This document shows positions 2,678 to 50,054 of a DNA stretch of 64,000 nucleotides, one piece after another (position 1 is the first letter of the stretch; each line of letters opens with the position of its first letter). This DNA is from Bacilli bacterium (lineage in GTDB: Bacteria; Bacillota_I; Bacilli_A; RFN20; CAG-826). The DNA lies in the NCBI GenBank assembly GCA_045598525.1, contig JAZLMH010000023.1:10004-74003 (forward strand). Direction: 5' to 3'. Made by a program: the position numbers and the translations under genes. A model generated the notes under the pieces. It searched no databases. It worked only from the letters and a program-made list of their open reading frames with translations, and was not told the origin of the DNA.

Positions 2678-2707
2678 TAAAAAAAGACTCGCCTTTTTGC
2701 GAGTCTA
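2678..2707 (-). terminator. Rho-independent terminator after the GGDEF gene
   Basis: A perfect 8 bp stem (agactcgc / gcgagtct) with a 6 nt loop. On the minus strand it is followed by a run of 7 U. It overlaps the stop codon of the 2705..3862 gene. Confidence 0.6.
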
Positions 2708-3862
2708 TTCAGATTGTTGTTCTTTTTTATAATACGATTTCTTATCTTCGTACATATAAGCGTCTGCTGTTTGTAAGGCGTTTGAAAAGGCTTCTTGGCT
2801 TCCAAAACCCCCAACGTAGCATCCAACACTGAAATTGATCTCATATGGTTTTCCGCTGTTTTTGTTGAATTTTTCAGAAGCGGATTTAATAGATTCTTTT
2901 AATTCTGCAACCATTTCATCGTCAGCATTTCTGGAAACAATAACAAATTCATCTCCGCCATATCTGCAAAGGAACATTTCTCTTTTGTGTTTTGCTGTTA
3001 CTTCTTTTAATAACTCAGCCGCATCAGCCAAAGCAATATCTCCAACATCATGACCAAGTTTGTCGTTAATGTTTTTAAAAGCGTTGATATCAATCATTGC
3101 TACAAGCATGTCATGGCTTGATGGTCTTCTAATGAGGTAATCGACATAGTCGTTCAGGGCGTTTCTGTTGTTTGTGCCAGTTAATTGATCTCTTGTGATT
3201 TGGTCTGATTGGTCCTTGTATGTCATAAGAACCATCATCAAAGTAATGCCAACTTGGATTGCGGTGATTCCATAGAAAATCATCTGAGCGACGCCGCCGA
3301 TGACCGGGAAAAGCAAAAAGTAGATAAGAGGTAAATATTCTTGTTTTTTAGCAGGGCTGACGGCTTTTGAAATCGCAAATCCAGCAGCGATGCCGGAAGC
3401 AATGATATAAAGCCATAACAATGCCCAATTAACAGCAAGGAAAGGCCCTCTAACGTATTCGTTTTTATCGTTTATGGAGAACAATACGTTGGTGAAAGGA
3501 TTGATTACAACAAGAACAAAGCAAAGAAAGAGAGGGATTGAAAAAAGGGTCCACTGCCACTTAGTTGGTTTGAAATCGATTCTACTAAAAACCAAAATCA
3601 TCCAAGTAAACGGAAGAACGTTAACCATCAAATCATACAAGAGATTGCTTATTTGAATTAAAATCCTCGCGCCTTCAAACATCTGCCCTCTTAAAGAAAT
3701 GGCAGCAATGTCTGAGATGCAAAGAATCCATAAGCAAACCGCCATAATTCTTTTGATCTGGAAACTGACTGTTCTATTTTGGTTAATCAAAAAGAACATG
3801 ATGGCAGAAACGATCATGCATATAACGTTGACTTCAATATATGTGGCAATACTTGTGTTCAT
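2705..3862 (-). CDS. Membrane-bound diguanylate cyclase (GGDEF domain)
   Basis: 385 aa. About 6 N-terminal TM helices are followed by a C-terminal GGDEF domain with an intact RYGGDEF motif. Confidence 0.85.
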   Translation of the reverse strand: MNTSIATYIEVNVICMIVSAIMFFLINQNRTVSFQIKRIMAVCLWILCISDIAAISLRGQMFEGARILIQISNLLYDLMVNVLPFTWMILVFSRIDFKPTKWQWTLFSIPLFLCFVLVVINPFTNVLFSINDKNEYVRGPFLAVNWALLWLYIIASGIAAGFAISKAVSPAKKQEYLPLIYFLLFPVIGGVAQMIFYGITAIQVGITLMMVLMTYKDQSDQITRDQLTGTNNRNALNDYVDYLIRRPSSHDMLVAMIDINAFKNINDKLGHDVGDIALADAAELLKEVTAKHKREMFLCRYGGDEFVIVSRNADDEMVAELKESIKSASEKFNKNSGKPYEINFSVGCYVGGFGSQEAFSNALQTADAYMYEDKKSYYKKEQQSE

Positions 3863-12586: not shown

Positions 12587-13531
12587 TTAATTTTTAAAAA
12601 GATTCGCTTCCAAAAAATCAGTAGCAACTTTTGTATATTTTACGTTATCAACAATAAAGCTTAATCCGTGTGGAGCGCCTTCTATTTTTAATAAATGAAC
12701 GTTAGGATTTGCCGTTTTTAATTCGTCGCTCATTTCGCAAGGGACATATTTATCAGCTGTTCCATGGACAATTAAGATAGGCCTATCTGCGTTTTTTATT
12801 GCTTTGAGAGCAGAACTCTCTTCTATGTTAAACCTGCCAATAATTCTTGCGGCCAGCTTAACAAAAGGTTTGCAGAAACCTGCTGGCAAACGCATATCTT
12901 TAATTACTTTTAAGATGATTCCTAAAGGCGAAGAGAACGGACAATCTGAAACAATGCATTTCACATTTGAAGGAAGCTTCTGGTCCAAAGCCATCAAAAC
13001 GGTTGCTCCGCCCATCGAAATACCAGTTATTAAGATGCGAACATCTTTTCCATACTCTTCAATTACATAATTAATCCATGAAAGAAGATCTTTTCTTTCG
13101 TTTATTCCAAAAGTGATAGTTTTGCCATCGCTTAACCCGTGAGCCCTGTGATCAATCAAGATAGCATTAAAATTTTGTTCCAAATAAAAACCGAGCCCCC
13201 CAGAGAAATCTCTAAGCCCGTCTCCTTGATAACCATGAGCAAGGATAACAAACGGCCTGCTTAAATCGTTTATGTAAACTCGTGCATGCAAATTTTTGTT
13301 GTCGAATGATTTAATCCAAGCGTCTTGGCATGGTATTGTCTCTACCGTTTTTATGAGCCTTCTCATCTCTTCGTCATATGGCTCATATTGTTTTCCTTGC
13401 AATGGCTCTTTGGCAGACGGTTTATTTTTTAATACGTTGTAAAAACATTTGAAATAGATAACGACCAAAAACGAAAAAACCGCAAGCACTAAAGCAGCAA
13501 TAACAATTAAAAGAATCAAATACCATTCCAT
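12587..13531 (-). CDS. Membrane-anchored alpha/beta-hydrolase (esterase/lipase-like)
   Basis: 314 aa with an N-terminal TM helix, a GISMGG nucleophile elbow (GxSxG), and downstream Asp/His residues. Confidence 0.75.
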   Translation of the reverse strand: MEWYLILLIVIAALVLAVFSFLVVIYFKCFYNVLKNKPSAKEPLQGKQYEPYDEEMRRLIKTVETIPCQDAWIKSFDNKNLHARVYINDLSRPFVILAHGYQGDGLRDFSGGLGFYLEQNFNAILIDHRAHGLSDGKTITFGINERKDLLSWINYVIEEYGKDVRILITGISMGGATVLMALDQKLPSNVKCIVSDCPFSSPLGIILKVIKDMRLPAGFCKPFVKLAARIIGRFNIEESSALKAIKNADRPILIVHGTADKYVPCEMSDELKTANPNVHLLKIEGAPHGLSFIVDNVKYTKVATDFLEANLFKN

Positions 13532-13533
13532 GG

Positions 13534-14658
13534 TTATTCTGCTTTTATTTGTTTGTTGGCCTTTTTGTTTTCATACATATTCTGGTCAGCTTTATCTAAT
13601 GCAGTTTCAAGAATTTCGATTTCAGGATTAAATTTTGTGTATCCATATGCAACTTCTGGTAGTTTGTATTCACTAATTTTGTTTCTTTCGATTTCTAGTT
13701 TTTCCAAGCATTCCTTAATCAATGCTTCGACATCACAATTTAGATTTTTGGTCGTGATACAAATGAATTCATCTCCGCCAAACCTATAGCATAAAAAATT
13801 GTTTTTGGTGAAGGTTGATTTGACTGCACCTGATATAATTTTGATTACTTCATCGCCAACAGCGTGGCCATATTTATCATTAATTTGCTTAAAATCATTG
13901 ATATCGAAAGAAACAATGACCTGAGCTTTATTCTCGGAGCTCTTTACATGAACGTCATAGGACAATCTGTTCATAAGTCCTGTCAACGAATCTGTTTTAT
14001 AACTAACCGAATACATATATGTGTAAAGCAATGTGAGGCCAATTATTGCAACTGGCCAATCAACCCTGATTTCGCTCCAAAAAAGGTGGATTGATAAACC
14101 AATAACGCCGTAGAAAAAGATCGCAATCAAGAATTGTATATCCTGTTTTTGGCTTCTTTCTGAATATCTTCCTGTCTCGAAAAGAAGATAGAAGATTGAG
14201 ACAAAATAACTGAGGTTGTAAATGAAATATAAATGAGCGTGGGCGTATACACCATTCTTGAATGTATAAATTAGCCATTCGAATTCGAAAGGCGCAGCAA
14301 CGCAGGAGACGATTTCTAACAGGAAGTTGAAAATAATGATTCCGAAAACGACACGGCAAATAGATTTTTTATATTTAAACCCAAGCGTCCAAACAAAGAC
14401 GGCAACAGGGGCCAAAGAATGTTCGAGCATTATCAAAACATCTCTAACAATGAAAAGGAATCCTTCCGTGGCACCACTTAACTTCTGATAACCGAATTCG
14501 CAAAGAGAAGACAATATCAAAATAATGAAGGTGACAGATGCAGAAATCTTTTTCCTTCTTTCAATAATTGGATTAGTCGTAATAGAGACTATTACCGATA
14601 ATGCGACTAAAACGCCTATTAAGATTATCGCTGAATAGAAATCCATTTTCTCCTCCAT
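13534..14658 (-). CDS. Membrane-bound diguanylate cyclase (GGDEF domain), second copy in the window
   Basis: 374 aa. About 8 TM helices are followed by a GGDEF domain (YRFGGDEF). It is co-directional and adjacent to the hydrolase gene. Confidence 0.8.
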   Translation of the reverse strand: MEEKMDFYSAIILIGVLVALSVIVSITTNPIIERRKKISASVTFIILILSSLCEFGYQKLSGATEGFLFIVRDVLIMLEHSLAPVAVFVWTLGFKYKKSICRVVFGIIIFNFLLEIVSCVAAPFEFEWLIYTFKNGVYAHAHLYFIYNLSYFVSIFYLLFETGRYSERSQKQDIQFLIAIFFYGVIGLSIHLFWSEIRVDWPVAIIGLTLLYTYMYSVSYKTDSLTGLMNRLSYDVHVKSSENKAQVIVSFDINDFKQINDKYGHAVGDEVIKIISGAVKSTFTKNNFLCYRFGGDEFICITTKNLNCDVEALIKECLEKLEIERNKISEYKLPEVAYGYTKFNPEIEILETALDKADQNMYENKKANKQIKAE

Positions 14659-14764: not shown

Positions 14765-16003
14765 TTATTTAAAGAGTCTTTCTAAGAGGCCTTTTAATGC
14801 TTTTCCGTGTCTTGCTTCATCTCTAGCCATCTCATGAACGGTGTCGTGAATTGCATCAAGACCATTTTTCTTAGCACAGAGGGCAAGATCGGTTTTTCCT
14901 TGTGTAGCGCCAAATTCACAATCAACTCTCCACTTTAGGTTTTCTTTTGTGGACTCTGTCATCTTTGGCTCGATTTCGCTTCCAAGTAATTCAGCAAATT
15001 TTGCTGCGTGTTCTGCTTCTTCATAAGCGGCTTTTTCCCAATATAAGCCAGCCTCTGGATAACCTTCTCTATGAGCGATTCTAGCCATGCAGAGATACAT
15101 TCCAACTTCGGAGCATTCTCCAGCAAAATTGGCTTTTAATTGTTCTAAGATGTAGGCTTTGTCTTCTTCAGAAACAGCTGGATTGTTCTTAACTGTTTTT
15201 GCATAAACGCCAAATTCGTGTTCTGCTGCAAGCTTCATTTCTCCTTCAACAATAGTGAATTTTTCTCCTCTGACATGGCAGACTGGGCATTCTGCTGGTG
15301 GTTGATCACCTTCGTGGACGTATCCACAAACAGGGCAAACATATTTTTTCATTTTTTGGTTCTCCTTTATGTTTATTTGTTTATTATTAATTTTTTCGAA
15401 ATCTGAAGCTGGATGCTTGCATATTGGGCAAATGAAGTTTTCTGGTAATTCTTCCCCTACATACTCATATCCGCAGACAGTACAGCGCCAGATTATTTCG
15501 CCATTTGGCATAGTTCCCACGGGAATTGGCTTAGGCTTGATGTTCTTCTGATAGAAGTCGTATGTAGCAGACGCTTCTTCACTAATAACTTCCATTTCAG
15601 TTATGGTTCCAACAAACTCTGTATGCGAACCCAAATCGATTGTTTTTGCAACTTTCACTGAAATAAAAGCGTTGGTGCCATTTGAAATATAACAGATACC
15701 GTTCTTGCTTCTTTTTGAAAATTTGAAAGACTCAAACTTGTTGACCGCCTTGCCGCTTTGGAATCCAAAATGTTTAAACAAATCAAACGTTGCAGATTCG
15801 GAAATAACGGAAACGTTGAATAATCCAGTTTTCATGATTAAATCATGAGTTAGATTTTCTTTGTTTACTGAAACGCTCAATTGCAAAGGTTCGGAAGCAA
15901 TCTGAATCGCGGTATTAATGATGCAGCCGTTGTCTTTTTCGCCATCACGTACAGTGAGAACAAATAAGCCATAGCTGAGCTTATGCATTGCTTTGGTGTT
16001 CAT
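14765..16003 (-). CDS. Fusion protein of a flavin reductase-like domain, two rubredoxin-like domains and a reverse rubrerythrin diiron domain
   Basis: 412 aa. The N-terminal ~150 aa is flavin-reductase-like. Two CxxC...CxxC rubredoxin modules follow (CTVCGYEY..CPIC and CPVCGYVHEG..CPVC). The C-terminal ferritin-like domain has paired E...ExxH motifs. Confidence 0.8.
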   Translation of the reverse strand: MNTKAMHKLSYGLFVLTVRDGEKDNGCIINTAIQIASEPLQLSVSVNKENLTHDLIMKTGLFNVSVISESATFDLFKHFGFQSGKAVNKFESFKFSKRSKNGICYISNGTNAFISVKVAKTIDLGSHTEFVGTITEMEVISEEASATYDFYQKNIKPKPIPVGTMPNGEIIWRCTVCGYEYVGEELPENFICPICKHPASDFEKINNKQINIKENQKMKKYVCPVCGYVHEGDQPPAECPVCHVRGEKFTIVEGEMKLAAEHEFGVYAKTVKNNPAVSEEDKAYILEQLKANFAGECSEVGMYLCMARIAHREGYPEAGLYWEKAAYEEAEHAAKFAELLGSEIEPKMTESTKENLKWRVDCEFGATQGKTDLALCAKKNGLDAIHDTVHEMARDEARHGKALKGLLERLFK

Positions 16004-16196: not shown

Positions 16197-16224
16197 TTGC
16201 AAGATGTTTTTCCCTAGATATTAT
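16197..16224 (+). promoter_or_regulatory. Candidate sigma-A promoter (TTGCAA-16-TATTAT) directly upstream of the riboswitch
   Basis: The hexamers were read by eye, with -35 ttgcaa at 16197..16202 and -10 tattat at 16219..16224. The predicted +1 falls at the aptamer 5' end. Confidence 0.35.
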
Positions 16225-16225
16225 T

Positions 16226-16302
16226 TAACAGCGTTAAAGGCAAAACCGTGGCAACGCGGCGACGCAAAACTAAAGGGCCCCATTGGGGCAGCCAGTTACC
16301 GT
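16226..16302 (+). promoter_or_regulatory. GEMM / c-di-GMP-I-like riboswitch in the 5' leader of the 16351..22753 operon
   Basis: The leader carries AAAGGCAAAACC, a CCGUG-GCAA-CGCGG hairpin with a GNRA loop, CGACGCAAAAC, a GGGCCCCAUUGGGGC P3-like hairpin, and GCAGCCAGUUACCG. These parallel the V. cholerae Vc2 aptamer elements GGGCAAACC / GAAA loop / GGACGCAAAGCC / GUUACCGA. Downstream, a CCUC-CAAA-GAGG hairpin can sequester the SD. Confidence 0.65.
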
Positions 16303-16344
16303 AAAAATTGAGGTGGTTTTATTCTTAAACCCCTCCAAAGAGGA

Positions 16345-17187
16345 ATGGCAATGGAAAAAAGGTACAAAAGAAAAGCTGCTGCTCTCATGGGCCTCACAGT
16401 TCTTTCTTGTGGAACATTGTTTGTTTCTTTAACGGCTGCTTGGTTCACAACCTTAAGGCAGGCACAGAATAACACAGAAGGCTTCAAGATTGGTGACACT
16501 GTACTCATCGAAGAGATCAAATTCTATCAACATAAATCAACCACTAACGGCTTAATCGATTTTTATCCAGCCGAATCAACCTACGAAATCGGAGATGGGA
16601 GATATAAGTCAGACCTGGGCTTCTATAACCTTCTCGAATCAAATTACCAAACTTTAATGGAAATCACCCTAACAAAAGATGCCGTTGATGGAGAATATGA
16701 ACTCGACTTCAACGCCACCACTTTCGCTACCCAATCTCATTTGACAGCCAACTCAACGGGTTCGCCAAATTACCCTTTAACAAACGACCCTTCGAGAAAC
16801 AATAGTCTTTCTTCGATTATAGACTTTTATGTTTTCTTTCAGAAAGACGTACAAGTTAGCAATCAAAAAATAAGTCTCTCAAAAGCAGAGAACGAAAATA
16901 ACAGAGACATAAACAATAAAGAAATATGCAATTTTATAGATAAGAATGATGACATAGTCGAATCAAAATCTATAAATCTTGTTAGTTTTAACGCAAAAGA
17001 TATTGCTGTAGACGGAGTATCTAAAATCTATGTCATGCTCGACTACAACGAGGAAAACTGCGCAAAGATGTATGGTAACAACATCGGTAATACAGCCATC
17101 GAAAAAGGCCATTTTTTAAGGAAAGGAACGGACTTACCAATTTTGAAGTTCGACGCGGACTTCGAATTTGATTTGATCATGAAGTGA
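16345..17187 (+). CDS. Secreted ~280 aa protein with a TasA/camelysin-type (SipW-cognate-like) signal peptide; candidate TasA-like fibre or matrix subunit
   Basis: The N-terminus is a basic stretch, a hydrophobic core and an AAWFTT motif (compare TasA GGGTWAAFND and CalY GGGTFAFFSD). The C-terminal strand DFEFDLIMK resembles TasA QFSFEATQ. The real start is probably the ATG at 16351, 7 nt after the GAGG SD. Confidence 0.5.
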   Translation: MAMEKRYKRKAAALMGLTVLSCGTLFVSLTAAWFTTLRQAQNNTEGFKIGDTVLIEEIKFYQHKSTTNGLIDFYPAESTYEIGDGRYKSDLGFYNLLESNYQTLMEITLTKDAVDGEYELDFNATTFATQSHLTANSTGSPNYPLTNDPSRNNSLSSIIDFYVFFQKDVQVSNQKISLSKAENENNRDINNKEICNFIDKNDDIVESKSINLVSFNAKDIAVDGVSKIYVMLDYNEENCAKMYGNNIGNTAIEKGHFLRKGTDLPILKFDADFEFDLIMK

Positions 17188-20100
17188 TGAAGATAAGAGA
17201 AAAGATTAAAAAACTGTTACTTATCTTTGGCTTTACCGCCAGCGCTTTTGCAGTGCTTGTTTCTTCTACTTTTGCTTGGATTGTTTCTTCTAACAAAGTT
17301 CCTATGGGCAATACCACAGGTTATACTCAAGGCGCTTATTTCGCGCGCGGCCGCGGTACACATGATGACCCATACATTTTGAACGCACCAATTCACTTAT
17401 ATAACCTTGCCTGGCTCCAGGAAATGGGAAAATTCAATGTCATCGATGAGACCACGGGCAAATATGAGCCAGTCTATTTCGAGATGGAAGCAGATATCGA
17501 TGTCTCTGAAACCGAATATCAGAAACTTCCTCCAATTGGCACTCCTGAATATCCGTTTATTGGTAACTTCAATGGTGCAGGCCACACGATTTCCGGTCTT
17601 AAGACATGCAACGAATTAGGCAGCGGAGAGGATCAAATCCTTAGAAAGCCTTCAAGCGTAACAGACATCAGCAACGCAAATGTCATGGGTTTCTTTGGCG
17701 TCGTTGGACCATATAACGGAAATCCTTCAGCAGCCACATACAACAGCCAAGCAAACGAGATCAAAAACTTTAACATCAAAAACTATTCAATAATTTCCAA
17801 AACATCAAACCTTCTTGTCGGTGCCGTCGCAGGCTACATCAATGGAAAAATTTCAGAAGTTGCCGTTTCTAGTGAAGGCGATGGAATCACTTTCGATATT
17901 GGTGAAAGCACATCAAAATTAGGCACATTCAACAACCTCAGTGATTATGGTCTGGTCGGATATGCCGCAGAGGAATACAGAACCGAGTTAAATAACGAAA
18001 AGGTTGAAATTTATAACACGTTCATAACTGACGGTGATTCTGCAGGCAGTTCCTCAGGAAACCAAGACGCTTGGGGCGGAAACATTACCGCAGGAGATTT
18101 AAGCAACAGAATCAACACCCTTGCTGGCGACTCAGGAAACCAAACCGCTCTTAAATGGGAAAACAAAGTCAAAGAAAGAACGGCTTTTGTCGAAGGGGAA
18201 ACCGTCTATTCAGAAACAATTGTCGAGTACACCGATGAAGAATTAATGGTTGGAGCCTCCCAATATGAAGACGCAAACAACAAGTTAAAAGGCAAGGTTA
18301 TCTATGGAGAAAACCAAAACAATGATTTTTATGGTTCTTTAGACAGACCGGAAGAACTTGGCTATAGAGAAACTATTTATTCTCCTGGAGGGTCTGCTGA
18401 TTCTGACGACCCTGGCTCTGGATCTACAGGAGGAGGAGAACCATCAGACACACCAGGAGGAAACGTTGATATTCCTGGACGTCCAAAAAAATTTAAGGAA
18501 CCTACAACAGACGAATCCATTAACTACCAATATATCAAAGGCGGCCAATGGGGAGGCTTTGACAGTTTTAATGAAACTGAAGCTAACGGATCAATCTTTG
18601 AAAGAGATGAGCATTATATAATTACATTCACTGCGTCTAACAAATTTTATCTAGGTTTATGGAGCCTCGGGGAAAACGACGTAGTTCAATTAAACACAGG
18701 ACAATCTTATGTTTTCAGGGATTGGGGACAATATTTAAGACTTTGTGAGAGAAACGATTATGAGTCTGAAAAGCCGTGGTATCTCAGATACAACGGGCAA
18801 TCTCTAGTTTTGACAGGCAACGAAAGTTGGGCAAACGTTGTTTTCATCAACAACAAACTTCGTATTGACCCTACAAACATCACACATAACGCAAGAATTA
18901 CGTCTCCTACAACTGGATTAAATACCGCAGCCTTTAGCTATAACAATCAGGCATCTAAGTATTCCTTGCCAACAACTTTTCGTGCCAACGAGGGGCTTGT
19001 TCCTGTCCCTTATTACTTCCTCGAAAACCAAAATGGCGGATCACCAACAGTTACAAAAGATAGAAGCAATGCTACAAAGTTCACTTTAGACGCAAACAAC
19101 TTCTTGTTGTTTAAAAACAAAAGCGGAAACCAGGTTAACATCGGTACATATAACGAATGGACTTTTGAGCAATACGTTATTGCTAACGATAATTTAGGCA
19201 TGGCTTTTAGGGTCGTAGAGGAAGACGGAAAAAGCTACATCAGGCTTTACAAGAGAGTAACAAACGATAATGGAACAACATTGACTGCCCAAAGCCAGTA
19301 TTTGTATTACGATAACGTGTCTTTTGGTTATACAACGAATAGAGCAGAATCCAACGTCGTATTTGATGTTGAATCAAGCAAGCTTAAAACAGTCAAGTAT
19401 TGTCAAATAAGCGATTTAGGCGAGGATGACTATATCCCAACTACAAAGAACAAAAAACACGAAGAAAAGGTCGGTTCTTCCTACCTTCCTTTAAACGTAT
19501 ATAACACCACGCCGATCCCAGCCGAAGACCAAACAAACTTCTGGAACAATAGCACTCTCAATCCTGATGGATTAACTCCAGGTTTGTATACCCCTACACC
19601 AACAAATAATGGTTATGTCGTTGGCGGTACAAAAAATGATAGTGTCGATCTTACAGACGCAGCTGCAATTAAGTTTAATCAGTTCAGCGGCGTTGCCCCT
19701 TTTGGCGGAAACCAATTTGATGTTATGACTGTTAACCCTTCTTCTGGTCAATTCACATTTGTCAAAGATGACGGAGAATCTAGTGCAATATCTGCAAATA
19801 GAGAAACGCTTAGCCACATTCAAGACTGGAGCAAACACTCATATAGCGATTTAGGTCTACAAAGATTCAAAGAATCCAAAGCGACAATCGGAACAAAGCT
19901 TGGCACCGACCAAACTTTCATGCGCTTCAACGGAGTTAATATCAGCGATAAAGAAATCGTTACGGCAGATTATGCTTTATTTAATCAGCATATCTACAAA
20001 GATTATGAATTACCTGAATCTTCATTTGATTTCAAAGTTGAGGATGAGGTAGGAATCTTTAACATGTTCACAAGCGCTTATAGAGAAGGCGCGGATTGTA

Positions 20101-21206
20101 CAGGCTTTGCCTCTTTCTATCAAATCCTTAGAGATGGGGATGAAAAAATTACAGAAATCAAACGTATCAGTAAAATTTATGGCGACGATTCTGGCAATAT
20201 CGCATATCAGTATTTTGAAGACATCTCTTCTGCAACAACGGCTGATGGTTATTTTGATAGCGATCAGAATGCGGTCTCGATTACTGGATATACCTTAAAA
20301 TTCGACATGGCTTGGTTAGAGAGCCCAGGATTTGCAAACACCCATGCAGGTTGTTATTACTTCGAATGGCCGGCTGCCCAAGGCGAATACGCAATTGCAT
20401 CAACCCCAAATAGCGAAACAGAAGCAAAGAACGGCTATATGTATTATGTCGGAGTCGGTGCTCCAGTAGAAAACATTCAAAGAACACAAATCTATGAAAA
20501 ATACGTTAAAACAAAAACCTCCAGCACTGTTGTTAAAGGCGTTTATTTCGTAAACGACTTAAGCGATCCTCGCTCTTCAAGCAATAATCTTGCCATCAAG
20601 ATTGAAGATGGATTTACAGGCGTCATCTCTATTTCCTCAAACGCTAGCAACGAAGTCATCGTTGAAGGTTTTAATTCCACTACTACCGAACTAAATTACA
20701 AAAACTATGACACGGTATTCAAAGAGTCAAGCGACGCTTCGGACGAAATTGAAGTCGGGTCTTCGTCGGCAATAGAAACAACAGTAGAAAAAGTAACGTA
20801 TATCGACGGTGAAGGAGACAGCCAAAAAATGTATTCCATCACCAAGACTACAGTTAATAACAATGGCGTTTTAAGTGACCCTGTTAGAGAAGGCGTTTTA
20901 TATGAGACGATCGGGGCAGAACCTAAGAATTACGAAAACGCTGCAATGAATCCAACCAACACTAACGTCAATACTGTCATTTATGAGTTCCACTACACAT
21001 TTATAAAAGAAGATGTTATTGAGCTGACCGTGGCGTTCAAGCTTGATGACGGATCAATGACAACAGGCAAATATTACGTTACCTTTGAGGGTAACTCTGA
21101 AGACGTCAACATAACATTCAACGTATTCGACAGCGATGAGATTGGCATTTACCTAAATGACGCTCTGGTTGAAACGTTTACCATATTGGTGGAGGCTAAT
21201 TTATGA
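17184..21206 (+). CDS. Giant 1340 aa secreted protein with a SipW-cognate-like signal and a beta-helix-like N-terminal domain; putative adhesin or fibre-associated protein
   Basis: The signal is KKLLLIFGFTASAFAVLVSSTFAWIVSS. Just after it comes GRGTHDDPYILNAPIHLYNLAWL, the G-x-G-T-x-x-x-P-Y-x-I cap common at the start of pectin-lyase-fold beta-helices, then FIGNFNGAGHTISGL. A Gly/Asp/Pro-rich linker sits near residue 410. The start overlaps the upstream stop (GTGATG). No recognisable catalytic motif was found. Confidence 0.6.
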   Translation: MMKIREKIKKLLLIFGFTASAFAVLVSSTFAWIVSSNKVPMGNTTGYTQGAYFARGRGTHDDPYILNAPIHLYNLAWLQEMGKFNVIDETTGKYEPVYFEMEADIDVSETEYQKLPPIGTPEYPFIGNFNGAGHTISGLKTCNELGSGEDQILRKPSSVTDISNANVMGFFGVVGPYNGNPSAATYNSQANEIKNFNIKNYSIISKTSNLLVGAVAGYINGKISEVAVSSEGDGITFDIGESTSKLGTFNNLSDYGLVGYAAEEYRTELNNEKVEIYNTFITDGDSAGSSSGNQDAWGGNITAGDLSNRINTLAGDSGNQTALKWENKVKERTAFVEGETVYSETIVEYTDEELMVGASQYEDANNKLKGKVIYGENQNNDFYGSLDRPEELGYRETIYSPGGSADSDDPGSGSTGGGEPSDTPGGNVDIPGRPKKFKEPTTDESINYQYIKGGQWGGFDSFNETEANGSIFERDEHYIITFTASNKFYLGLWSLGENDVVQLNTGQSYVFRDWGQYLRLCERNDYESEKPWYLRYNGQSLVLTGNESWANVVFINNKLRIDPTNITHNARITSPTTGLNTAAFSYNNQASKYSLPTTFRANEGLVPVPYYFLENQNGGSPTVTKDRSNATKFTLDANNFLLFKNKSGNQVNIGTYNEWTFEQYVIANDNLGMAFRVVEEDGKSYIRLYKRVTNDNGTTLTAQSQYLYYDNVSFGYTTNRAESNVVFDVESSKLKTVKYCQISDLGEDDYIPTTKNKKHEEKVGSSYLPLNVYNTTPIPAEDQTNFWNNSTLNPDGLTPGLYTPTPTNNGYVVGGTKNDSVDLTDAAAIKFNQFSGVAPFGGNQFDVMTVNPSSGQFTFVKDDGESSAISANRETLSHIQDWSKHSYSDLGLQRFKESKATIGTKLGTDQTFMRFNGVNISDKEIVTADYALFNQHIYKDYELPESSFDFKVEDEVGIFNMFTSAYREGADCTGFASFYQILRDGDEKITEIKRISKIYGDDSGNIAYQYFEDISSATTADGYFDSDQNAVSITGYTLKFDMAWLESPGFANTHAGCYYFEWPAAQGEYAIASTPNSETEAKNGYMYYVGVGAPVENIQRTQIYEKYVKTKTSSTVVKGVYFVNDLSDPRSSSNNLAIKIEDGFTGVISISSNASNEVIVEGFNSTTTELNYKNYDTVFKESSDASDEIEVGSSSAIETTVEKVTYIDGEGDSQKMYSITKTTVNNNGVLSDPVREGVLYETIGAEPKNYENAAMNPTNTNVNTVIYEFHYTFIKEDVIELTVAFKLDDGSMTTGKYYVTFEGNSEDVNITFNVFDSDEIGIYLNDALVETFTILVEANL

Positions 21207-22753
21207 AATTAAACTTGGTTCTAATAGCTGCAGGAGTTTTTGCTCTTGCTAGTTGCGCAAATTCTAATAATGGGAGCGGCAGCAAGGCTCCATCAAGCAG
21301 TACTCAAAGCGAAAACAGCACTAAATTAGTTTTAAGTAACGACATCGAAAAAGCAGAAAGAGACATCGATAATTCTTTCAACGCTTTTATGTCTGCCAAA
21401 GATAATCAAACCAAGAATGCTTTGTTTTTTGGTCTAAATAAAGCAGCCGCAATAGCAGAGTTAAATCTTCATGGAAACATCGCATATGAAGGTCATGATA
21501 ACGGCGAAAATAGCGCTTTTGTCAAAGTGACAGCAGAACCAATGAGCCAAGCTTATGGTTTCCTTGAATCAATAGTCCTACAAGGCCACCCTAAAGAAAA
21601 CTACTCAGGAAAGAGTTTCTTCACCAGCCCTAATTCAAATAGGCTTGGCATTCTTACTTTCGAAGACAGGAATGAAGTAATAATCGAATATTGGAGTGAT
21701 TATCATATGGTAATCGGCAACGATGATGCTGGACCATATGTCTTATCTTTCAACTTTAGCGAAAAAGAACAATATCTCAATTATGAGACACCTTATTTTG
21801 GTTTCGTTTATAACAACGTTGAAGACAATTTCGAAGAAGATTATGAAGCTATAATGAACTTTGCTTCTTCTACTCTAGACGTCTCTTCAGCACCTTTTTC
21901 CATGGTTAAAGAAATCTATTTAGATGATGGAAGGGACCTTCACCCTACTTATAGTAGCGAAAATCCTGATCATGTTTTGTATAGCAAAGTTAAAAATAAG
22001 TATTTTAGCGATAACGTCCTTTCTGAAATCTATTTCAAAAAGAAATATTATGTTGGAGCACTTAATAGCCAAGACACATTAGAAATTAGCGACAACACAT
22101 TAAGAAGCGTGGATTACCTTTCAATGACTTTTGAACTAGATGTTCCTGAAGGAGTTACGACAATCGAAAAACTCTATGGCAATAGCGATAGAACGAACTA
22201 TATCTACTGCCTTCATCTTCCTAGCAGCGTAGAAACAATTCTTCCTTCAGCAATCAACGAAAATGTTATAACTGATTGCGTTTTTATCGATGGAGAAACC
22301 CCAAAGCCACAATTGGAATCTGTTTTAAAGGGATTTAATCCAGATATTAAAATCTATTATTCTCCAGATTTCCAAATTGTTGGAGGACTGTATGTCCCTA
22401 ATGCTTTCCATAACCAGTCCACAGAAGATGACCATGAACACGTATTCACTAAAAAGATTGCTTCAGAAAATATATTTTGCGAAGAAGCAAATTGCCAACA
22501 CCCAACAAGATATTTCTATTCTTGCAACGAATGTGACGCCACATCAATCGCAGTTTTTGAAGAGGGCGAGTTAGGCAGTCATATTTTCAGTGAAATTGAA
22601 ATGCAAAACAGGTTCCCTTGCATTGGGTATTTCGTATACGAACGCTGTGAAATCTGCAACGAGCAAACATCGACATGGGTCGACCCTGTGGACGAAGGCC
22701 ATGAATATAACGAAGACGGTCACTGCAGATACTGCGGTAAATTAAATAACTAA
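21203..22753 (+). CDS. Lipoprotein with BspA-type LRR-like segments and a Cys-rich C-terminal domain (putative zinc-ribbon-like)
   Basis: 516 aa. The signal has an LASC lipobox. A 4 nt ATGA overlap couples it to the giant gene, and GGAGG sits 9 nt upstream. The C-terminus has CEEANCQH...SCNECD...CIGYFVYERCEICNEQ...GHCRYCGKLN with eight or more paired Cys. Confidence 0.55.
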   Translation: MKLNLVLIAAGVFALASCANSNNGSGSKAPSSSTQSENSTKLVLSNDIEKAERDIDNSFNAFMSAKDNQTKNALFFGLNKAAAIAELNLHGNIAYEGHDNGENSAFVKVTAEPMSQAYGFLESIVLQGHPKENYSGKSFFTSPNSNRLGILTFEDRNEVIIEYWSDYHMVIGNDDAGPYVLSFNFSEKEQYLNYETPYFGFVYNNVEDNFEEDYEAIMNFASSTLDVSSAPFSMVKEIYLDDGRDLHPTYSSENPDHVLYSKVKNKYFSDNVLSEIYFKKKYYVGALNSQDTLEISDNTLRSVDYLSMTFELDVPEGVTTIEKLYGNSDRTNYIYCLHLPSSVETILPSAINENVITDCVFIDGETPKPQLESVLKGFNPDIKIYYSPDFQIVGGLYVPNAFHNQSTEDDHEHVFTKKIASENIFCEEANCQHPTRYFYSCNECDATSIAVFEEGELGSHIFSEIEMQNRFPCIGYFVYERCEICNEQTSTWVDPVDEGHEYNEDGHCRYCGKLNN

Positions 22754-22891: not shown

Positions 22892-22936
22892 AAAAAAAGG
22901 ACCGTCGTTTCTGACGGTCCGGGTTTGTTATTTCTT
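22892..22936. terminator. Bidirectional rho-independent terminator between convergent genes
   Basis: An 8 bp ggaccgtc / gacggtcc stem with a 6 nt loop is preceded by caaaaaaa and followed by gggtttgttatttctt. Confidence 0.65.
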
Positions 22937-22944
22937 AAAGATGA

Positions 22945-25900
22945 TTAAGCTCCTTTTGGAGCTTTTTTCTTCTTAAGAACAAGAACGACTGCAACAGCAG
23001 CTGCTGCGACAACTGCGGCTGATCCTGCAGCGATGCCGACGATGAGGCCTGCGTTTGCTGGCTGGCCTTTATCGCCTGCTGATGTGCCATTGCCTGCGAC
23101 ATATTCGTTAACGTATTTATCAGCTGCGACATATAACTCGAATGAATAGCCATAGGTCTTTTCTGATGTAACGAATAAGATGTGGACGAAGCCGTTAAAT
23201 TCTTCTTCGACAGTACCTGAGATAACGTTGCCATTTAATTCAAGACCTGCTGGAAGAGGTGTTGCTGTACCAATCTTGATTTCTGCGCCAGAAACTGACT
23301 CTGGGGCTTCGATTTCGATTTCGATTGCGTCACCAACTTTTGCTTCTAAACGTTCATCGATGACGTTTGTTAATTTTGCATCAACTTCCTGGGTTAAGGC
23401 TGTCTGCATAGCACCAGAGTTAGCACACATCCACATTGCTTCTTTAGCGCATGTACGGACTGCATACCACCATGAGTATGATGGGGTATTTTCACCGCTA
23501 ATCTTACTCTTATAGACTGGGCAGTGTAATGTGTTGCTCCAACTTGCATTGACGTCCTCTTTGTAGCTCTGTGAGTCGAGTTGGTTGTTACAACCTGCTA
23601 AGACACGGTTGTTGATGTTTTCGTAGCACTTGCCGTTGAATGCACTGTTACCATGGTGGGTCATATCAGAGATGATAGAGCCTTTGAAGCCCCATTCATT
23701 TCTTAAGACTTCTGTTAATAAAGGATAGGAAGCAGCTGTTTCCATTAAACCTAAACGGTTATAGGAAGACATGATGCCTGTTGCTTTGCCTTCCTGGACA
23801 GCCATCTGGAATGGCTTTAAGTAGATTTCGCGGAGTGCCTGTTCGCTTAAGTAAGCGGTGACGCCTTCACGGTTCTTTTCCTGGTCGTTGACAGCAAAGT
23901 GTTTGAAGAAGCAGTAAATACCTAAATCGGTAGCGCCTGCAACGACCCTGCCACACATACGTCCACTTAAGAATGGATCTGCGGAGTAGTATTCGAAGTT
24001 ACGTCCGCCGAATGGAGAACGGTGTAAGTTACAAGCTGGACCAGCCCATCCGTAAGTACCGGATAAATGAGCCTCAGTACCAACCATTTCGCCCTGTTTC
24101 TTTGCAAGCTCAACGTTGAATGTTGCTGCAACGATTGGAGCGCCTGTCCACCAAATGATCTTGAATTGTGATGGGCCGTCGGAGTCGCCAGATGATGGCT
24201 TATCCATTCTGCTGATAGCTGGGTTGTGTTGGCTGCCGCCTGTGACGAAGTTAATCATTTCAGCGTAGGTCATCTGGTTCATGAATTCTTCCCATTTTGG
24301 GTCATCCATTGGTAAACCGACCATTTCTTTAAACTGAATTGATTGATCTTTTGTTAATGTTGTTTCTTGCTGAGTCCAGCCTAATGCTTCAATATCCTCT
24401 TTGGTCTTGTAAGCTGTTTTTGGCATGTACTCATAGTTTTCATCATGTTCGATGTCATCGAGTGAGAACTGGTGGTTGTAGAATTCTTGGACTCTGCTAC
24501 CTGCTTTTAATGTACGTTCCTCGATGGTTGGGTGATGTGGGAATGTTGCAGCAAAATCTTCACGTGAGAAGTGTTCGAAGCCAATGTCGTTTGCAAGAGG
24601 TAATGAGCTATAGAAATCTTGGCCTGAAAAACGGTTTTCAACTTTGTATCCAGTGAAACGATCTTTTTCGAACTGGATGCCGTTGTTCTTAACTCTGAAA
24701 TCAACAGAATCGAGAACTTCGTGTGCGTTTTTGCAAACATAGATGGAGTAATTTCCTTCATCAAGTTCATAGCCTTTGAAGCTGTTGTTGTTTGCATCTG
24801 TGTAGTCGTAGTTAGCAACATCAGCAATTGAGAAGCTTAATTCATAGATGTCTGATTCGCCTGGTTCAAGAACTTTTGTCTTGTCAAATGCGCATAAGAC
24901 ATGGTCTGCTTTTTCGATTCCGCCTGCTGTGTATGGTGCTTTCCAGTAAAGCTGGACAACATCTTTACCTGCGATATCCCCGGTATTTGTGACTTTAACT
25001 TTGACTCTGACTTCTTCAGATTCTTTTTCAAGGGTTCTGCCAGCAACTGTTGTTCCAACAATTTCCTGTTCGAATTCTGTGTAGCTTAAGCCATAACCGA
25101 ATGGGTAGATAACACCTTCTTCGCCTTCATACCAAGCGTCTGCTGCATCTTTACCTTCACTAGCGACTAAATCTTGATAGCGTGTTTCGTAGTAACGGTA
25201 GTCGACATAGACGCCTTCTTCGTAGCTAATGTATGAGGAAGGTTTGACGCCGTTAAGACCACTTTCGACAACTTTCTGAGCTTCTTCAATATATTTTGGA
25301 TCACTCTTTAAAGTGCCATCGCTTCTGACTGGTGTTCCATCTGCGTTGAACATGGTGTCCTGAGAAGCGTGCTTTAATCTGTTTGAAGTGTTTGGAAGAG
25401 CTTCGCCTGTGTGACGGTTGTCAGAGAAGTTCTGCCATGTTGGGTCCTTTGCGAAGTTACGTGCCCATGTGTCAACGGTGTGACCAGATGGGTTGACTTC
25501 ACCAGAGAGGATACGGCCAACTGCTGAAGCACCGTGAGCGCCTGGGTTGCCCATCCAAAGGACTGCTTTGACTTGGTCATCATCTTCAAACTGGTCACAC
25601 TGGAAGATGTTACCTGAGTTGATAAGGATGATGATGTTGTCAAATTTCTCGTGAAGCATATCAAACAATGCCTGTTCGTTGTCTGAAAGTTCAAGAGCGT
25701 GTTTTGTTGAATAACCAAACTGTGTTGAGTCGGTTGCGTCGATTGTTAAAAGGTCACAACCTTCGGAACCTTCACGGCTTAAGACCATGATGGCTGCATC
25801 ATTATATTCATCAAATGTTGCTTTTAATGTTTCGTCGTAGCTAGAGATTGGTGTTTCACCGATAGTGACCTGTGAGTTGCCTTTCCAGCCATCGTTACCG

Positions 25901-49129: not shown

Positions 49130-49967
49130 CCACTACCGCAAGATTCTCTAAGCGGACCGTATCAACGAAAGAAGCGAGAACCTGCATGTTGTAATTAACG
49201 TTTATATAAACCGTTGTGACCATGTCCTCATCCACGTCACAATCGCCATTATATAAAGTGAACTCTTCTATAGAATCGTCGCTAAAGAAGTTCATATGGG
49301 TTGTTGATTCAAGGGAAGAAAGATAACTGAGCTTATGGTAAACAGTCTCGTCTTCAGTCATTACCTTGCTTTGTTGCATATATGATGGGTAATAGTGTTT
49401 ATGCCCGTTATCTTCTAAAAGCTCGGATGTTAAATCTCCCTCTAAAAAGATATTAAAATCTAAGCAAGAGGACGCTTTGATTTCTTTTTCATGCAAACCG
49501 ACTGCTCTAAGCATTGTATCCACTTTGAGTTTTGCGCTTCCGCCAGTGAACTTGATTTTGCATTCGTAAATAATGTTTGTATTCATTGAAAGCAAAGGGC
49601 TGTGGTTAATTAAATAATCAACAGGGTCATATACGTTCATTTTGGCGTCACGTTCCTCAAATACATCATTTTCAAAAACACCAAACTTTGCTTGCTCTTC
49701 GTTATATGTGTATTTATGTACTTCTCCATTTTGTGGGGAAAGGTAGTCTACATAAGAATCATCCTCACCAATAGAAACAGAAGGATAAACAAACTTATAA
49801 ACATTTAATCCGATTAGCTCATTAGAGTCTGTATTGGCAACAGCAAAAGTCATGCCCGATACAGCTGCTTGTCTGTTTGCTGAAAACCACGCTAAAGAGC
49901 TGGTTGCTAGAGCTGCGGCTGAAGCGATAAAAACAAAAATAGAGCATGCGACTTGTTTACGGATCAT
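49095..49967 (-). CDS. Secreted ~290 aa protein with a SipW-cognate-like signal; paralog of 16345..17187 and intact
   Basis: It starts MIRKQVACSIFVFIASAAALATSSLAWFSANRQ. It overlaps the start of the downstream pseudogene, and its TAA stop lies inside the next gene's first codons. Confidence 0.5.
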   Translation of the reverse strand: MIRKQVACSIFVFIASAAALATSSLAWFSANRQAAVSGMTFAVANTDSNELIGLNVYKFVYPSVSIGEDDSYVDYLSPQNGEVHKYTYNEEQAKFGVFENDVFEERDAKMNVYDPVDYLINHSPLLSMNTNIIYECKIKFTGGSAKLKVDTMLRAVGLHEKEIKASSCLDFNIFLEGDLTSELLEDNGHKHYYPSYMQQSKVMTEDETVYHKLSYLSSLESTTHMNFFSDDSIEEFTLYNGDCDVDEDMVTTVYINVNYNMQVLASFVDTVRLENLAVVDDYIFRFGYGV

Positions 49968-49975
49968 TGGTTCCT

Positions 49976-50047
49976 ATCTGTAGCTGGCTGCCTTTTAGGG
50001 CCCTATAGCTTTGCGTCGCCCGATTTCTCGAGTTTTGCTCTTTAAGA
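49976..50047 (-). promoter_or_regulatory. Second GEMM / c-di-GMP-I-like riboswitch on the minus strand, upstream of the locus-2 cassette
   Basis: The minus-strand RNA reads UUAAAGAGCAAAACUCGAGAAAUCGGGCGACGCAAAGCUAUAGGGCCCUAAAAGGCAGCCAGCUACAG. It aligns position for position with the locus-1 element (GCAAAAC; GNRA hairpin CUCGA-GAAA-UCGGG; GGCGACGCAAAGC; GGCAGCCAG). It abuts the RBS AUAGGAACCAAUG of the 290 aa gene. Confidence 0.6.
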
Positions 50048-50054
50048 TGCGCAC

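Follow-up and report, generated by a model that had tools for sequence, protein, structure and literature searches.

The analysed stretch of DNA, hereafter the window, is 64,000 nucleotides long and carries, on its plus strand, a structured 5' leader followed by an operon of three genes for predicted exported or surface proteins (operon 1). The genes in and around this operon are the following:

2705..3862: membrane GGDEF protein with an intact GGDEF motif (Pfam GGDEF, 1.7e-31)
13534..14658, minus strand: membrane GGDEF diguanylate cyclase with intact GGDEF and NDKYGHAVGD motifs (Pfam GGDEF, 1.3e-26)
14765..16003, minus strand: gene between the cyclase and the leader, encoding a flavin reductase-rubredoxin-rubrerythrin fusion
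16351..22753, plus strand: operon 1, three genes
16351..17187, plus strand: gene 1, 278 aa, with an N-terminal hydrophobic helix and an AAWF motif followed by a predicted beta-sandwich
17184..21206, plus strand: gene 2, 1340 aa, its start overlapping the gene 1 stop, with an N-terminal hydrophobic segment containing STFAWIVSS
21203..22753, plus strand: gene 3, 516 aa, its start overlapping the gene 2 stop, a predicted lipoprotein with lipobox MKLNLVLIAAGVFALASC
22899..22920 and 22947..22964, plus strand: terminator-like hairpins 3' of gene 3, at the end of the operon

The hydrophobic N-terminal segments of the gene 1 and gene 2 products and the lipobox of gene 3 make the "secreted-protein operon" of the original prediction a reasonable description. 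None of the three genes matched a Pfam or NCBIfam family, and no PDB sequence matched gene 2. Gene 1 probably starts at ATG 16351, which lies 7 nt past the Shine-Dalgarno (SD) sequence and fits the N-termini of the orthologues; an in-frame ATG at 16345 is a less likely start. In orthologous loci gene 2 always comes next after gene 1.

The two nearby membrane GGDEF genes that had been pointed out as cyclase genes are genuine, as the Pfam matches listed above show. Since both proteins contain an intact GGDEF motif and the canonical NDK.GH.VGD sequence, they can be regarded as ordinary diguanylate cyclases and not as Hypr enzymes, and the one encoded at 13534..14658 is likely to be a local source of c-di-GMP. 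A pair consisting of an alpha/beta-hydrolase gene and a membrane GGDEF gene is oriented divergently upstream of the riboswitch-preceded operon both in the window (12587..14658, minus strand) and in the orthologous locus L002 (1474-3533). In L002 the operon and the divergent GGDEF gene are directly adjacent, whereas in the window the fusion gene at 14765..16003 is inserted between them.

The whole window was compared with all 4227 Rfam families (Rfam 15) by cmscan at the gathering thresholds. The leader of operon 1 matched RF01051 (c-di-GMP-I) at 16229..16303 on the plus strand with 61.0 bits (E 1.8e-9), across model positions 1-87 of 87 and well above the gathering score of 35. A search with this covariance model had been proposed together with the prediction of a c-di-GMP-I-like riboswitch, which it bears out. 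Two RF01051 matches, this one and a second described below, were the only matches in the window, and RF01786 (c-di-GMP-II) gave none in the same scan. That 16229..16303 is a c-di-GMP-I (GEMM-I) aptamer is practically certain. Its parts, together with the promoter-like site that precedes it, are as follows:

16197..16202 and 16219..16224, plus strand: promoter-like site, -35 TTGCAA and -10 TATTAT with a 16-nt spacer (9 of 12 matches in a consensus scan)
16231..16233 with 16300..16302, plus strand: P1, GCG/CGU, 3 bp, from the RF01051 match
16240..16241 with 16264..16265 and 16246..16250 with 16255..16259, plus strand: P2, GC/GC and CCGUG/CGCGG
16251..16254, plus strand: GCAA tetraloop of the GYRA type, capping P2
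16268..16271 with 16294..16297 and 16275..16276 with 16292..16293, plus strand: outer pairs of P3, AACU/AGUU and GG/CC
16277..16281 with 16285..16289, plus strand: P3 hairpin, GCCCC/GGGGC, with an AUU loop
16239, 16266 and 16299, plus strand: equivalents of the ligand-contacting G20, A47 and C92 in Vc2 numbering (G16239, A16266 and C16299), from the Rfam consensus and alignment A1

The motifs on which the riboswitch had been recognized are all in place, namely GGCAAAACC at 16239, CCGTG-GCAA-CGCGG at 16246, GACGCAAAAC at 16261, GGGCCCC-ATT-GGGGC at 16275 and GTTACCG at 16295. The claim of a GC-rich leader in AT-rich surroundings also holds, the G+C content being 57% in the aptamer, 39% in the window as a whole and 22% in the intergenic sequence immediately before the aptamer. 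The structured leader had been delimited as 16197..16344; the first 28 bases of this interval, 16197..16224, are occupied by the promoter-like site and lie outside the RNA structure. The site would act as the promoter, with transcription starting at about 16231, at the foot of P1. Similar hexamers were seen by eye at the same offset from the aptamer in the orthologous leaders L001, L002 and L005, and L131 has TTGAAA-16-TAGAAT at this offset (10 of 12 matches).

The P3 element of the window aptamer has the AACU/AGUU and GG/CC closing pairs and the conserved AG bulge, and its tetraloop-receptor region is deleted in the Rfam alignment. Type 1 aptamers of class I are recognized by a GAAA tetraloop and an 11-nt receptor in P3; here the loop reads GCAA, and P3 consists of a simple 7-bp hairpin. 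Class-I aptamers with a GYRA tetraloop and no tetraloop receptor in their short P3 have been described as "type 2" (PMC11218506), and by its sequence the window aptamer is one of these, so that the absent receptor does not bar it from RF01051. As to the ligand, the roles of G20, A47 and C92 follow PMC6140456 and PMC11218506. G20 contacts one guanine and C92 pairs with the other, while A20 marks relatives that bind cGAMP or are bispecific (PMC6140456). The C92 equivalent was inferred to be 16299, and not 16300, as the base immediately preceding the P1 strand. The A20 of GEMM-Ib (3',3'-cGAMP) aptamers is replaced by G16239 in the window, and a G at this position predicts selectivity for c-di-GMP, which is very probably the ligand.

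Conservation of the aptamer structure was evaluated in alignment A1, comprising 60 aptamer sequences. Overall, 84% of the structure was paired in A1, compared with 20-41% in a control with the partners slid. P2 was paired in 98.3% of cases, with double changes at three of its five pairs, and the observed covariation score was reached by 0 of 500 shuffles. The AACU/AGUU and GG/CC pairs of P3 were formed in 95.8% and 88.4% of cells, respectively, and were mostly invariant, an invariance that comes in part from a search pattern fixing these very pairs and therefore says little about covariation. P1 was paired in 40% of cases in a fixed register, with double changes at all four pairs, its register varying between lineages. 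Together with the presence of the aptamer upstream of orthologues of gene 1 (see below), the P2 result supplies the covariation in homologous leaders on which the original prediction was to stand or fall.

A core-pattern search of GTDB genomes gave at least 120 genome hits. A similarly short P3 was found in 85 of 119 distinct aptamers among the matches listed, a count to be read with the fact that the core pattern itself favoured the short-P3 form. The aptamers among these matches came mostly from Erysipelotrichaceae, uncultured "Bacilli", Acholeplasma/Anaeroplasma and Clostridia. A subgroup of the Acholeplasma/Anaeroplasma type (L016, L033, L049, L052, L092, L111, L117 and L129) reads GUUGUCAU at the 3' junction, with U at the C92 equivalent (column 74 of A1) and G20 retained, and each of its members has an overlap terminator. 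Tandem arrangements of two or three GEMM-I aptamers before a single gene were observed in L119 (989-1311) and L126 (1-324), where each copy has its own overlap terminator, and also in L045, L053, L109, L111, L127 and L130.

The 278-aa gene 1 protein has 16 relatives in a collection of 5.8 billion sequences, and contigs were fetched for ten of them. In these metagenomic contigs, RF01051 was found upstream of the gene 1 orthologue in L001 (44.5 bits), L002-L004 (49.7 bits) and L005 (45.4 bits), all scoring below the window aptamer. An aptamer is also visible by eye upstream of the orthologues in L007, L131 and L132, two of these three being truncated at a contig end. The riboswitch is absent before more distant orthologues of gene 1 and gene 2 (L006:861-1090, L008:772-1001 and L009:215-444), where a simple AT-rich leader comes after the terminator of the preceding gene. 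Riboswitch control was therefore gained or lost within the gene 1 family. Contig L133 encodes a protein (P0003) with 97% identity to gene 1 over 60% of the latter; the sequence before it is unrelated, and the contig was set aside as a probable chimera.

The orthologous leaders differ at position 20, with G in the window, L001 and L002, and A in L005 (293-368) and L131 (about 235-315). GEMM-I aptamers with altered specificity exist, and A20 in these two orthologous leaders, as well as in the second aptamer of the window, could suggest that the operon 1 aptamer senses another cyclic dinucleotide (3',3'-cGAMP), or that it is a decayed copy devoid of function. We consider both very improbable. The window copy combines G20, A47 and C92, which is the c-di-GMP-selective combination (PMC6140456), and the nearby cyclases carry the canonical GD specificity residue instead of the Ser of Hypr enzymes. 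It also has the highest RF01051 score among the orthologues, and decay is at odds with the conservation and covariation of the structure.

The orthologues also reveal how the aptamer may communicate with the gene. In L005, L007, L131 and L132 the 3' strand of the aptamer, designated S1 (GCCAGCUNCC), can pair with a downstream GG(N)GCUGG sequence (S2) that is followed by a U-tract, the resulting hairpins having energies of -10 to -12.5 kcal/mol; the corresponding hairpin of L002 is weaker (-7.5 kcal/mol). Because S1 is shared, aptamer and terminator are mutually exclusive in these four leaders. An exact complement of S1 followed by a T-run was present in at least 15 of 121 related aptamers among the matches listed. 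A second fold, in which S2 pairs with a further strand (S3) and the U-tract lies in the loop, is available in L002, L005, L007, L131 and L132 (-8.8 to -12.0 kcal/mol), its arms being related sequences in which true covariation is limited. In L001, which like the window has no U-tract terminator, S1 (CCAGCCACC) can instead pair with the final G of the SD together with the spacer and AUG. The orthologous leaders thus form a small natural case of platform turnover, in which one aptamer is combined with an overlap terminator or with pairing at the ribosome-binding site (RBS), or the riboswitch is missing.

The corresponding elements of the window leader are:

16291..16300, plus strand: switching strand S1 (GCCAGUUACC), comprising the 3' strand of P3, C92 and the first P1 base
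16310..16335, plus strand: hairpin C, 9 bp with one bulge, -10.3 kcal/mol
16310..16319, plus strand: S2 (GAGGUGGUUU), 5' arm of hairpin C
16320..16326, plus strand: UAUUCUU, U-rich loop of hairpin C
16327..16335, plus strand: S3 (AAACCCCUC), 3' arm of hairpin C, including the anti-SD CCUC at 16332..16335
16340..16344, plus strand: Shine-Dalgarno sequence GAGGA, read from the sequence

Besides its place in the aptamer, S1 has two possible partners, GGUGG of S2 at 16312..16316 or GGAAUGGC at 16342..16349, which covers half of the SD and the spacer. The SD, in turn, can pair with CCUC 16332..16335 across a CAAA loop, or through GG 16342..16343 with CC 16299..16300 of S1. The energies are -4.3 kcal/mol for the S1:S2 helix, which is directly followed by a U-run (16317..16326) resembling a degenerate terminator tail, and -4.7 kcal/mol for the hairpin between CCUC and GAGG of the SD. 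Unconstrained minimum free energy (MFE) structures pair S1 with the SD and spacer (GCCA/UGGC and CC/GG) around hairpin C.

A platform in which CCUC pairs either with GAGG of the SD or with an upstream GAGG had been proposed for this leader. CCTC at 16332..16335 and GAGG at 16340..16343 are where they had been placed, and the upstream GAGG exists one position earlier, at 16310..16313 and not at 16311..16314. Both pairings can be folded, at -4.7 kcal/mol and, for the rival hairpin C, -10.3 kcal/mol, and neither is distinguished from shuffled sequence (z = -0.34 for hairpin C, compared with +0.12 to -3.26 for the hairpins C of the orthologues). Of random 17-mers taken from the window, 10% form a duplex at least as stable as that of S1 with the RBS (-8.0 kcal/mol), so that neither this duplex nor hairpin C is significant alone. 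The hairpins had been put forward with no connection to the aptamer; the connection is provided by the aptamer 3' strand, as the orthologues show.

On these grounds we lean towards an ON switch that acts mainly on translation, and hold this reading to be probable, with some reserve. In the absence of ligand, S1 would be free and could pair with GGUGG 16312..16316, releasing CCUC 16332..16335 to cover the SD at 16340..16343; alternatively, it could pair directly with the SD/spacer sequence 16342..16349. With ligand bound, S1 would be locked in P3 and P1, and hairpin C could then form and hold the anti-SD, leaving the SD and the AUG at 16351 open. The weak terminator-like S1:S2 helix with its U-run may add some transcriptional control, and c-di-GMP could come from the two nearby cyclases with canonical GGDEF motifs. 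Since all the partners found for S1 are G-rich and lie in S2 or the RBS, a free S1 predicts a blocked RBS when ligand is lacking, and since locking of S1 by the ligand predicts hairpin C and an open RBS, the direction would be ON. The identity of the aptamer is established computationally; its ligand and the direction of control are inferences.

Structure prediction with the aptamer enforced gave results of both kinds. The predicted accessibility of the spacer rose from 0.30 to 0.76, and that of the SD itself was no higher than in the free RNA (0.43, compared with 0.50). In a 152-nt construct the MFE structure with the aptamer enforced includes a CCCCUC/GAGG(SD) hairpin. These last two results favour an OFF switch built on the same aptamer, in which the ligand-locked aptamer would leave S2 to pair with the A-rich coding start, and CCUC would be free to cover the SD. 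Many class-I c-di-GMP riboswitches of Bacillota are OFF switches, e.g., Cd1 (PMC9262584), and OFF-type platforms with a separate downstream terminator were seen by eye in several related loci. We nevertheless regard an OFF switch as unlikely. The two folds obtained with the aptamer enforced differ little in energy, and a shorter construct retains hairpin C and an open SD. In addition, the G-rich partners of S1 in the ligand-free state predict that expression is off without ligand, and the overlap terminator of the orthologous leaders is of the ON type. Moreover, exported and surface proteins are usually induced by c-di-GMP.

The translational ON switch that we prefer also has to be weighed against a purely transcriptional one, with S1:S2 and the U-run 16317..16326 as the terminator and the SD-proximal pairings as incidental. 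This design is conserved in L002, L005, L007, L131 and L132, and the window retains the U-rich run UGG(N)UUUUAU. Its hairpin, however, reaches just -4.3 kcal/mol, with wobble pairs and a loop of 8-11 nt, as against -10 to -12.5 kcal/mol in the relatives. A consensus terminator scan called no intrinsic terminator on the plus strand between aptamer and start codon, and hence not the S1:S2 helix either; the scan is not decisive, as it also calls none in the orthologues, whose bulged terminators it misses. With the scan empty and the S1:S2 fold weak, a convincing intrinsic terminator before the start codon was rejected, and exclusively transcriptional control seems decidedly unlikely.

The second RF01051 aptamer of the window is located at 49976..50049 on the minus strand (55.2 bits) and has A at the position-20 equivalent (AGAGCAAA). 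A20 is the signature of cGAMP-binding or bispecific aptamers; both cyclases of the window look canonical, so that c-di-GMP may still be the ligand. An AGGAA SD begins 3 nt past the aptamer. In L060 (Bacilli bacterium Horse_feces352), the leader orthologous to this one has A20 as well. The operon that follows is:

49967, minus strand: start codon of operon 2, encoding proteins of 290 aa, 83 aa, 704 aa and 198 aa, then two BspA-type LRR proteins

Operons 1 and 2 are built in a similar way, each with a first protein of about 280 aa containing AW(F/I) and a very large protein, which is the directly adjacent 1340-aa protein in operon 1 and the 704-aa protein, located after the 83-aa ORF, in operon 2. 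An N-terminal hydrophobic helix with AW(F/I) occurs in three of these proteins, as LTAAWFTT (16351..16500), STFAWIVSS (17187..17320) and SLAWFSAN (49967..49830, minus strand), and an LPPIG..PF.G.F.G motif is common to the large second proteins. The AW(F/I) segment resembles signal peptides of the SipW/TasA type, but this likeness has the support of no HMM and was set aside. The idea that the first genes of operons 1 and 2 are homologous was rejected, as the profile-profile alignment of their families by hhalign covered residues 9-50 only (E 5.8e-5, probability 66%). Both first-gene families are rare, with fewer than 25 homologues each among the 5.8 billion sequences, and neither the first nor the large proteins of the two operons have a relative in Pfam, NCBIfam or PDB. 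It is tempting to speculate that the two operons together make up a surface fibre or adhesin system, so far undescribed, that cyclic dinucleotides induce in uncultured gut Bacilli, and that the pair of G20 and A20 aptamers might make control graded or responsive to two ligands, although we regard this as a doubtful conjecture.

The riboswitch before operon 1 is of a thoroughly known kind and only the instance is new; it is an ordinary class-I riboswitch, a standard member of a well-known class. Annotation in the style of PGAP would label such a riboswitch automatically. Neither this new instance nor the platform turnover among the orthologues changes the current understanding of the class, and any novelty would reside in the genes controlled. 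What the riboswitch does offer is a functional handle, linking c-di-GMP signalling in an uncultured gut lineage of Bacilli to an operon of uncharacterised exported proteins, which are likely to be part of a sessile or adhesive programme.

Three known systems are suitable for comparison. With Vc2 of Vibrio cholerae, the prototype of RF01051, the window aptamer shares the three-helix junction, the junction sequences GGCAAA, GACGCAAA and ACC, the equivalents of G20, A47 and C92, a GNRA-type tetraloop on P2 and the location in a 5' leader. It differs from Vc2 in that P3 is a 7-bp GC hairpin with a 3-nt loop, the 11-nt receptor is absent, and the tetraloop is GCAA instead of GAAA. Bc2 of Bacillus thuringiensis is an ON switch of class I that precedes cap, the gene for a collagen adhesion protein (PMC11218506). 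Like the window aptamer, it is a class-I aptamer of Bacillota placed before a surface or adhesin-type gene, and induction by c-di-GMP is the direction that we propose for the window. In the case of Bc2 the assays were of transcriptional switching (PMC11218506), whereas the window leader has no strong terminator and seems to work at the RBS; the proteins downstream are unrelated, those of the window matching no known family. Finally, in the GEMM-Ib ON switch of pilM from Geobacter metallireducens, a shared strand makes aptamer and terminator mutually exclusive (PMC9262584), and the L005, L007, L131 and L132 leaders are built alike. The pilM aptamer has A20 and senses cGAMP, whereas in the window aptamer position 20 is G and the terminator built on the shared strand has degenerated to a helix of -4.3 kcal/mol.
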